Sequence record: PQ438391.1
Direction: 5' to 3' (one strand)
DNA: 64,000 nucleotides
From: Escherichia phage vB_Eco_T-01
In this document: piece after piece, positions 56,582 through 57,759 of the stretch
Layout of the letters: each line of letters begins with the position of its first letter
Position numbering within the stretch: the stretch's first letter is position 1
Made by a program: the position numbers and the translations under genes
Notes under the pieces: generated by a model
Seen by the model: the letters and a program-made list of their open reading frames with translations, nothing else
What the model was told of the DNA's origin: nothing
Database searches by the model: none

Positions 56582-56689
56582 ATGAAAATTTTGTTTGTTG
56601 TGTATGTGATGATTCAATATAATTACCCAATGTTTACTTATAATCTGGTGAACAACATTATTGATATGATTCAGAGGAGTATACAGTGA
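56582..56689 (+). CDS. short hydrophobic peptide (possible leader or small membrane peptide)
   Basis: 35 aa 'MKILFVVYVMIQYNYPMFTYNLVNNIIDMIQRSIQ'; strong SD AAGGAGAAG; stop overlaps next ATG. Confidence 0.35.
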   Translation: MKILFVVYVMIQYNYPMFTYNLVNNIIDMIQRSIQ

Positions 56690-57231
56690 TGAGTGAGGCG
56701 AAACGATTAGTATTAGAAGTTAGTTCACTTTTTGGTGAATTGGCTATAGAAAAAGTAAATAATATGTATCGTTTGACACAAGAAGACGATATGCTATATT
56801 TTACGCCTAACGAAATTGTTCGTTTAACCCAAATTGAAAATTCTTATACTGATAAAATTGTAAGCATTAATGATGAGCATAAAATTCATTTCTATTCTTT
56901 ATGCCCAGGATTTAATATTGAAAGCGAGTCAATATGCTTATCAATTAATAATTGGGATAATTTTATAACTAAGATTAAATATTTTTATTATTCTAATGAA
57001 AGAAAACATAGTTTAAAATGGTTTAAAAATTGCAATGCTATTATTACTAACGCTTGCAATCAGAATGATGAAACTGTTTTAAACGTATCAAAATGTTATG
57101 AAGATGGAGATGTCTTAACTATTCGTCAAATTGATGATTTTCGATCGCATATTGTCACATTTACCAAAGACGAAGCTATTGCACTAAAGACTTATCTTGA
57201 TTCTGTTATTCCAACTATGATTTCAAAGTGA
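56689..57231 (+). CDS. hypothetical protein, paralogue A
   Basis: 180 aa; shares 'GFNIE(S/D)E' and C-terminal 'YL..V.P(T/S)M' with the next ORF. Confidence 0.55.
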   Translation: MSEAKRLVLEVSSLFGELAIEKVNNMYRLTQEDDMLYFTPNEIVRLTQIENSYTDKIVSINDEHKIHFYSLCPGFNIESESICLSINNWDNFITKIKYFYYSNERKHSLKWFKNCNAIITNACNQNDETVLNVSKCYEDGDVLTIRQIDDFRSHIVTFTKDEAIALKTYLDSVIPTMISK

Positions 57232-57237
57232 GGAAAT

Positions 57238-57759
57238 ATGTTTATTTCAAGTGAAAGCGGTTTAATTCGTGTTGAATTTAAAAATGACATCTTTCTTAGT
57301 CAAGGAGATGATATTATTAAAATGAGTTATGACGAAATCAAGAAAATTTGTCATACTCTTGAAAGCCGTGGAAAAGTAAATGCTGTTATTGACATCGGTG
57401 ATTTATGGGTAACACTTTATGAAGTATCCGAAGGATTTAACATTGAAGATGAAAATAACATTTTAGCTATTGATAAAAGAAGTGATTTGTTTGATGTATT
57501 AAAAGTTTATGAACAGTCAAATGGCGGAAGAAAAGCTGTATTGATTTATCAAAAACCGCATTCATGTGGAACTGCTTCAATCATTTCAAATATTGAAGAT
57601 GAAACTGATACTTATATGTGTGTTTTAAAAGCTGGTGGTGACCGTCATCCGGATTTTATTTCTATTCGTCAAAACAATGGAGAAATTTCATTATCAAAAT
57701 CAGAAGCTGAAGCGATGATTAAGTATTTAACAACCGTTACGCCTTCAATGAAAGGATAA
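57238..57759 (+). CDS. hypothetical protein, paralogue B
   Basis: 173 aa; paralogous to 56689..57231. Confidence 0.55.
   Translation: MFISSESGLIRVEFKNDIFLSQGDDIIKMSYDEIKKICHTLESRGKVNAVIDIGDLWVTLYEVSEGFNIEDENNILAIDKRSDLFDVLKVYEQSNGGRKAVLIYQKPHSCGTASIISNIEDETDTYMCVLKAGGDRHPDFISIRQNNGEISLSKSEAEAMIKYLTTVTPSMKG

Follow-up and report, generated by a model that had tools for sequence, protein, structure and literature searches.

Proteins of the PC4-like/PUR/Whirly structural class build a full domain from two repeats, each of four β-strands followed by an α-helix, which are supplied by one chain (type I) or by two (type II) (Janowski and Niessing, PMC7549692); PC4-like domains bind single-stranded DNA (ssDNA) or RNA, and Pur-alpha is the sole reported protein that has both types, with repeats I and II pairing intramolecularly and repeat III dimerizing (PMC7549692). 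In bacteriophage T4, the open reading frames (ORFs) Y05I (MobD.1) and Y05J (MobD.2), the Pfam families PF24449, PF24448 and PF26864, and PHROGs 1502 and 3515 are already known, and the Pfam label for Y05I already reads 'putative transcription factor'; the published work that we found on mobD.1, mobD.2 and Y05I consists of listings, with no functional study among them. Here, we analyzed a stretch of 64,000 nucleotides (nt) from Escherichia phage vB_Eco_T-01 (PQ438391.1; hereafter the window), which carries mobD.2, mobD.1 and a second y05I-family gene in succession. On balance, we favor the reading that the latter two genes encode PUR/PC4-like repeat proteins that dimerize and bind single-stranded nucleic acid early in infection, and that mobD.2 encodes a separate micro-protein. 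The features at the center of the analysis are the following.

56582..56689, + strand: mobD.2 (T4 Y05J), gene of a 35-amino acid (aa) micro-protein, phrog_3515
56689..57231, + strand: mobD.1 (orthologue of T4 Y05I), 180 aa, three predicted PUR-like repeats
56689..57003, + strand: repeats I and II of mobD.1 (aa 1-105), predicted intramolecular PC4-like (type I) domain
57004..57228, + strand: repeat III of mobD.1 (aa 106-180), Pfam T4_y05I_C, unpaired half-domain and probable dimerization module
57238..57759, + strand: second y05I-family gene, 173 aa, tandem paralogue of mobD.1, without a database name

The identity of these genes is established by comparison with annotated relatives: in the annotation of phage PP01, the 35-codon ORF is mobD.2 and the 180-aa ORF is mobD.1, both of which T4 likewise carries, and the 173-aa ORF and the next, 153-aa ORF are 'hypothetical proteins' followed by nrdC.11. 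An earlier note on this DNA had proposed that the 180-aa ORF (counted from the ATG, which an in-frame GTG at 56686 precedes) and the 173-aa ORF are paralogous, on the basis of two common sequence blocks, GFNIE(S/D)E and a C-terminal YL..V.P(T/S)M. The proposal holds, since both blocks are present in a significant pairwise alignment with 27% identity over 176 aa (BLASTP, 49.3 bits, E 1e-12). Moreover, both proteins score above the curated gathering thresholds of both family hidden Markov models, T4_y05I_N (mobD.1, E 6.7e-41 and 139.4 bits; paralogue, E 2.3e-33 and 115.2 bits; cut-off 24.9) and T4_y05I_C (mobD.1, E 9.6e-21 and 74.4 bits; paralogue, E 4.3e-23 and 81.9 bits; cut-off 27), and are thereby members of the y05I-like family; both also match phrog_1502. 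Because the BLASTP E value and the common Pfam and PHROG families place the similarity far beyond chance, the two genes are, as judged from their sequences, true tandem duplicates of the catalogued T4 gene mobD.1. The family itself is small and confined to T4-like phages, as an exhaustive profile search of 1.84 billion representative proteins yielded 23 clusters at E <= 1e-3. A scan of viral contigs with the family alignment gave 5 loci, and our comparisons therefore drew on a phage collection.

The AlphaFold2 monomer models, for which the family alignments served as input, predict three successive β-β-β-β-α units in each protein, with repeats I and II packed together (mean predicted local distance difference test score, 74 for MobD.1 and 79 for the paralogue, and approximately 90 over the first ~100 residues in both). 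These predicted models fall within the PC4-like/PUR/Whirly structural superfamily. In addition to Pur-alpha, the structural matches include the trypanosome guide-RNA-binding proteins MRP1/2, the plant Whirly proteins PBF-2 p24 and StWhy2, and one SsgA-like protein; matches to a single repeat comprise Pur-alpha repeat III (5fgo, 8chw), Borrelia Pur-alpha (3n8b), PC4/Sub1, a Burkholderia PC4 homologue and the PC4 homologue of phage T5 (4bg7). A fold search of BFVD returned family members and a few uncharacterized Bacillus-phage proteins, and nothing more. We regard the assignments of fold and family as solid, with the fold and the repeat architecture being predictions from models, and on this footing the y05I proteins are predicted to share the layout of Pur-alpha, in which a type I and a type II arrangement are combined.

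The repeats are also related to one another and to smaller proteins. In hhalign comparisons, repeat I resembles repeat III (probability 82%, E 1e-5) and the single-repeat family DUF7189 (probability 86%, E 5e-6), and Pfam cross-matches that connect DUF7189, T4_y05I_C and the paralogue's repeat I point the same way. DUF7189 is a 71-aa single-repeat protein whose gene lies directly upstream of the lone y05I gene in Gaprivervirus VR25, Dhakavirus AnYang and contig L016, and repeat III (T4_y05I_C) is found alone as proteins of 74-87 aa. Since such stand-alone repeat III and DUF7189 proteins occur, the family has both one-repeat and three-repeat forms, which is what half-domain pairing between chains would be expected to produce. 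We rejected the idea of a much stronger conservation of repeat III than of the other two repeats when the paralogues are compared, the identities being 26%, 27% and 32% for the three repeats.

Conservation of gene order places the pair in a wider setting, in which two further genes of the window are involved.

57762..58223, + strand: gene of a ~150-aa membrane protein (153 aa here), phrog_944, from PHROG match and synteny
58220..59233, + strand: nrdC.11, RlaP-family nucleotidyltransferase, final gene of the predicted unit

A gene containing y05I_C stands directly before a homologous gene of a ~150-aa membrane protein in seven genera (Tequatrovirus, Mosigvirus, Dhakavirus, Gaprivervirus, Tegunavirus, Karamvirus and Gelderlandvirus), and in Tegunavirus, Karamvirus and Gelderlandvirus the y05I_C gene at this same genomic position is a stand-alone repeat III. 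The membrane protein homologues have a conserved N-terminus (MIIN.NSWH..L..SLCAYFWK) and C-terminus (KARKEKVCP.IEF). nrdC.11 comes next after the membrane gene, or is separated from it by one further gene, in Tequatro-, Mosig-, Dhaka-, Gapriver- and Tegunavirus and in two unclassified contigs, and unclassified contigs keep the same order; for Karamvirus and Gelderlandvirus, the established part is the adjacency of the y05I_C and membrane genes, with phage S16 having a short ORF annotated as NrdC.11-like. Every y05I copy that could be placed is upstream of the membrane protein and nrdC.11 genes, and the locus lies between rI and nrdC.11. The other genera with a three-repeat gene have one copy, which makes the tandem pair a Tequatrovirus feature. 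Contig L017 carries only a paralogue-type copy, and some contigs carry a chimera with a MobD.1-type N-terminal part and a paralogue-type C-terminal part, as would be expected from unequal recombination between tandem copies.

T4 itself departs from this arrangement. The homology between T4 and the window ends 15 nt into the paralogue (57253) and restarts 8 nt before nrdC.11 (58212), and the 958 bp in between (57254-58211) are replaced in T4 by an 804-bp cassette encoding the HNH homing endonuclease mobD (NC_000866, 56457-57260). This is a clean cassette exchange, with mobD in T4 taking the place of the paralogue and the membrane gene. The mobD state is in the minority, with 47 records (>=95% identity) versus 433 that have the paralogue (>=80%).

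mobD.2 presents a separate case. As the earlier note had described, this 35-codon ORF has a strong Shine-Dalgarno (SD) sequence and a stop that overlaps the ATG of mobD.1. The SD is AAGGAG (56570-56575), with 6 nt between it and the start codon of mobD.2, and the overlap is 1 nt, the A being common to the TGA and the ATG (TGATG). The gene matches phrog_3515 (E 1.7e-21); a Pfam scan of MobD.2 gave no family, PF26864 (Phage_T4_Y05J) being a precomputed label on its homologues. Using tblastn, homologues were found in 842 phage records, as compared with 729 for mobD.1, and the peptide, with a length of 34-36 aa, has the near-invariant core VQYNYPMFTYNLVNGI in Tequatro-, Mosig-, Karam-, Jiaoda- and Gelderlandvirus. 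Between genera, nonsynonymous divergence (pN) is 0.19-0.29 versus a synonymous divergence (pS) of 0.45-1.0, which is near saturation; dN/dS is ~0.1-0.4 in most between-genus pairs where it is calculable, and the variable sites among 37 codons are distributed 22/7/29 over the three codon positions. The low pN relative to the nearly saturated pS, together with the second codon position varying least, establishes that the peptide is under purifying selection.

How might these proteins function? Dimerization through repeat III, nucleic-acid binding, and any link to nrdC.11 or the membrane protein are inferences. Repeats I and II of each protein would pack as one intramolecular domain, and repeat III would be a leftover half-domain in need of another such repeat, which could be provided by the repeat III of the same protein, by that of the paralogue or by a single-repeat relative; MobD.1 and its paralogue would consequently act as homo- or heterodimers. 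By analogy to Pur-alpha, MRP1/2, Whirly, PC4 and the jumbo-phage protein ChmC, these dimers may bind single-stranded nucleic acid early in infection, and in T4, mobD.1 is indeed expressed early at both the RNA and the protein level, with Y05I_BPT4 quantified by mass spectrometry (PMC9697503 supplements). RNA would be a likelier ligand than DNA, because RNA binders are among the closest folds (MRP1/2 and Pur-alpha), because ChmC, a phage protein with a Whirly fold, binds mRNA (PMC11077065), and because the constant neighbor nrdC.11 belongs to the RlaP family. The window's NrdC.11 matches Pfam RlaP (PF10127) with an E of 2.6e-11 and 44.1 bits, above the gathering cut-off of 23, and the RlaP study, which reported that the family adds 1-2 nucleotides to damaged RNA 3' ends, also assigned T4 NrdC.11 to it (bioRxiv 10.64898/2025.12.29.696909). 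mobD.2, in turn, would be translationally coupled to whichever gene follows and would not act as a regulatory leader of mobD.1.

Several observations weigh against this proposal. Both proteins are acidic (isoelectric point, 5.1 for mobD.1 and 4.8 for the paralogue; 4.7 and 4.4 for repeats I-II alone), and their inter-strand turns are Asp/Glu-rich (QEDD, IESES), whereas the turns of Pur-alpha are Lys/Arg-rich and basic; because of this acidity of proteins and turns, the pair fits a nucleic-acid binder less well. A sequence search of the PDB with MobD.1 returned nothing meaningful (best E 0.69) and no Pur-alpha chain at E up to 10, and the pair matches neither the PUR nor the Whirly sequence profile, with no PurA, Whirly or PC4 match in a Pfam scan at E up to 1. 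Repeat III is of low confidence in both monomer models, which is consistent with the absence of its pairing partner but is no proof of it. SsgA-like proteins have the same fold and protein-contact roles. As for the neighboring genes, the overall collinearity of T4-like genomes makes synteny a weak argument for a functional link, and T4 retains mobD.1 and nrdC.11 although it lacks both the paralogue and the membrane protein. Furthermore, split or frameshifted y05I copies exist in T2, fPS-90 and other phages, and the nrdC.11-mobD.3 block can be lost from T4 with viability kept (PMC9825161); such broken copies and the tolerated loss of the block make the genes accessory, their dispensability in T4 being established. 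Regarding the micro-protein, T4 mobD.2 is early at the RNA level, with its protein class given as 'NA' and its product not detected (PMC9697503 supplements).

The main rival explanation, a protein-adaptor role possibly exerted with the conserved membrane protein, takes up this acidity and the SsgA-like match: the y05I scaffold would serve protein-protein contacts, as in SsgA-like proteins, instead of nucleic-acid binding, for example, by docking on the downstream membrane protein or on a host target in the manner of acidic early 'host-takeover' or anti-defence factors. We consider this possible but somewhat doubtful, since nucleic-acid binders (Pur-alpha, MRP1/2, Whirly and PC4) account for all of the strongest structural matches and mobD.1 is kept in T4, where the membrane protein is missing; moreover, acidic charge is compatible with ssDNA or RNA binding, T4 gp32 being acidic too. 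A far more elaborate version of the nucleic-acid-binding reading can also be imagined, in which y05I, DUF7189 and stand-alone y05I_C constitute a modular phage 'PUR-repeat kit', whose one-repeat and three-repeat members would pair through half-domains to give different RNA-binding dimers that would work with the membrane protein and NrdC.11 in the repair of RNA (tRNA 3' ends) or in counter-defence against host RNA-targeting immunity; we offer this as a speculation that is probably wrong.

For the short ORF, the earlier note had pointed to leader-peptide or small-membrane-peptide arrangements. That the ORF is a leader peptide or a regulatory upstream ORF controlling mobD.1 is suggested by its shortness, its strong SD, its stop overlapping the mobD.1 start and its position as the first cistron after the predicted promoter; nevertheless, we hold this to be very improbable. 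Purifying selection acts on the peptide in the different genera, but its downstream neighbor changes. In Tequatrovirus this neighbor is mobD.1, in Mosigvirus it is a DUF7438 gene, Jiaodavirus and Karamvirus both have a DksA-type zinc-finger gene there, and Gelderlandvirus S16 has an unrelated small gene, which makes four kinds of follower in five genera in place of a constant downstream gene. The mobD.2 stop overlaps the following start in 5/5 genera (ATGA, TAATG or TGATG), and such junctions are ordinary in this cluster, overlaps of 1-11 nt being found at 6/17 junctions in the PP01 annotation. Conversely, y05I genes also occur without an adjacent mobD.2, as in Tequatroviruses L018 and L019. 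An attenuator or leader RNA structure was rejected, because the RNA fold of 56582-56730 is no stabler than that of shuffled sequence (z +0.27), with neither an alternative nor an excess structure, and an Rfam search of the ORF and its junction gave no leader family above threshold. The other arrangement, in which MobD.2 is a small membrane-inserted peptide acting alone, for instance one that modulates a membrane protein or is itself membrane-active, concerns the short ORF only and is compatible with PUR/PC4-like proteins encoded by the pair; we judge it unlikely, though less so than a leader. The description of the peptide as hydrophobic is right in part: its first ~10 residues alone are strongly so, and overall it is no more than moderately hydrophobic (grand average of hydropathy, 0.57, with a range of 0.57-0.84 over all homologues); in addition, a membrane protein gene is in the same predicted unit, and the record of Mosigvirus SA35RD notes a membrane-bound region in its mobD.2 homologue. 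The description does not extend to a transmembrane segment, for which we required ~19 residues with a Kyte-Doolittle mean of >=1.6, the usual value on what is a simple scale and no dedicated predictor: the best 19-residue window of MobD.2 reaches 1.03 (0.88-1.04 in six homologues), well under the 2.04 of a genuine 31-aa transmembrane peptide that VR25 encodes at this locus. The core that is conserved best, QYNYPMFTYNLVNG, has a polar-aromatic character, and the lack of experimental detection counts against this arrangement as well. Thus, MobD.2 is not clearly transmembrane, and mobD.2 is best seen as an independent conserved micro-protein gene and not as a leader of mobD.1. The 31-aa transmembrane peptide of VR25 and AnYang was considered as a MobD.2 homologue and rejected, as the sequences are unrelated and both are present in L016.

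The transcriptional organization of the locus is predicted from the following sites.

56524..56553, + strand: T4-early-type promoter-like site before mobD.2, a prediction, with GTTTAC at 56524-56529 and TG plus TATAGT at 56548-56553
56531..56566, + strand: 15-bp hairpin with the -10 hexamer TATAGT in its loop and 3' arm (RNA fold -19 kcal/mol, z -4.4)
55679-55696: intrinsic-terminator-like hairpin after rI.-1, closing the upstream unit
59235..59264, + strand: intrinsic-terminator-like hairpin (59235-59254) and T run after nrdC.11, closing the predicted unit

A consensus scan before mobD.2 identified TTTACA-17-TATAGT with 10/12 matches and the TG present, and the record of SA35RD lists this motif, in the corresponding position, as a T4 early promoter. 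On account of the flanking promoter-like and terminator-like sites, a five-gene early unit is predicted, in which the early promoter would drive mobD.2, mobD.1, the second y05I gene, the membrane gene and nrdC.11, up to the terminator. The hairpin lies between the -35 element and a point just past the -10 element of the promoter-like site (window 56524-56566), and a hairpin is found at the same place in four other lineages with stems that differ in sequence (L011 2443-2485, L010 2652-2694, L014 2450-2481, L017 1112-1158); this recurrence with different stem sequences indicates that the pairing is kept by covariation. The hairpin may end or stabilize upstream transcripts, with its DNA serving as the promoter; SA35RD annotates it as a terminator, yet no T run follows. 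A near-consensus sigma-70-like site (TTGACA-16-TATATT with TG, 11/12 matches) is also present on the + strand in the 5' part of mobD.1, at 56773-56800. The SD of mobD.2 contains GGAG, as do the equivalents in Mosigvirus and S16; GGAG is the core motif cut by the T4 endoribonuclease RegB, whose gene lies in the window at 51558-52019, and targeting of the mobD.2 early mRNA by RegB is possible.

The region around the pair is 100% identical to that of Shigella phage vB_SboM_Phaginator, and its identity to several hundred genomes of Tequatrovirus (T4-type) is 93-99%. Early transcription runs along the + strand of the window, which carries, in order, regB, vs.1, vs, tk, rI.1, rI, rI.-1, the small genes mobD.5-mobD.2a, mobD.2/mobD.1/paralogue, nrdC.11 and nrdC.10. 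Among the small genes, mobD.4, mobD.3 and mobD.2a (55955-56521) are adjacent and all match Pfam DUF7438 (E 1e-15 to 1e-17), which makes them a further set of tandem paralogues, probably the first pair implied by the earlier note, in which mobD.1 and its paralogue are the second; tk.2-type genes are likewise found upstream, and the DUF7438 copy number differs among related phages, L018 having as many as six. A cassette of three genes that the window lacks is found in other genera between the DUF7438 genes and the y05I gene (L005 2370-2934, L004 2428-2750, L016 3990-4557, L011 1972-2443); its products are an 85-aa zinc-finger protein of the DksA/TraR type, an overlapping, strongly hydrophobic peptide of 31 aa (MIYYLEPWAWL...) and a single-repeat DUF7189 protein. 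Elsewhere, an 84-88-aa 'Phage_tudor' (PF24144) gene overlaps the y05I gene from upstream, in the position of mobD.2 (L017 1282-1536; L018 and L019 3733-3999).

Public records that match 55900-59300 (e.g., OL615012, NC_054930 and NC_000866) carry misleading product names. MobD.x proteins are named 'molybdopterin-guanine dinucleotide biosynthesis protein MobD' and nrdC.x products 'thioredoxin', y05I fragments in T2 are labeled 'prohead core scaffold protein', and T6 mobD.1 is labeled 'integrase and recombinase'; all of these are name-propagation errors. Our analysis corrects such names and provides a structural and mechanistic hypothesis for two uncharacterized early genes of hundreds of T4-type phages, including several that serve in therapy or biocontrol. 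Current understanding is not overturned by it, and under laboratory conditions the phage can do without the genes; we see it as useful annotation of modest interest. What is new is the explicit three-repeat Pur-alpha-like architecture predicted from the models, together with the link to DUF7189 and stand-alone repeat III, the membrane protein and RlaP genes as conserved neighbors, the mobD cassette swap in T4, and the evidence for mobD.2 as a selected micro-protein instead of a leader. The conserved trio of a PUR-like protein, a membrane protein and an RlaP RNA nucleotidyltransferase is a candidate for a role in RNA repair or anti-defence.

The closest described relatives are the T4 proteins MobD.1 (Y05I_BPT4; PF24449 T4_y05I_N and PF24448 T4_y05I_C) and MobD.2 (Y05J_BPT4; PF26864), to which the window genes are orthologous with ~94% DNA identity; T4 differs in having a single y05I gene, the mobD homing endonuclease standing in place of the second copy and the membrane gene. 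Pur-alpha (PURA), the eukaryotic ssDNA/RNA binder with three PUR repeats, offers the nearest parallel in layout, which is probably not confined to eukaryotes; the phage proteins, however, have no detectable sequence similarity to it, are acidic and lack the basic turns of its PUR repeats, and the resemblance is probably convergent or extremely remote. With the Whirly/MRP- and PC4-type proteins, such as ChmC, the T5 PC4 homologue (4bg7) and Borrelia Bpur, the y05I proteins are predicted to have in common both the fold class and the assembly logic, whereby a full domain arises within one chain or from two single-repeat chains. ChmC and the Whirly proteins differ in that they assemble as tetramers from chains of two repeats and have basic binding surfaces, and y05I carries neither a Whirly nor a PC4 sequence signature, whereas the stand-alone y05I_C and DUF7189 proteins parallel Bpur, a single-repeat PUR protein, and PC4.

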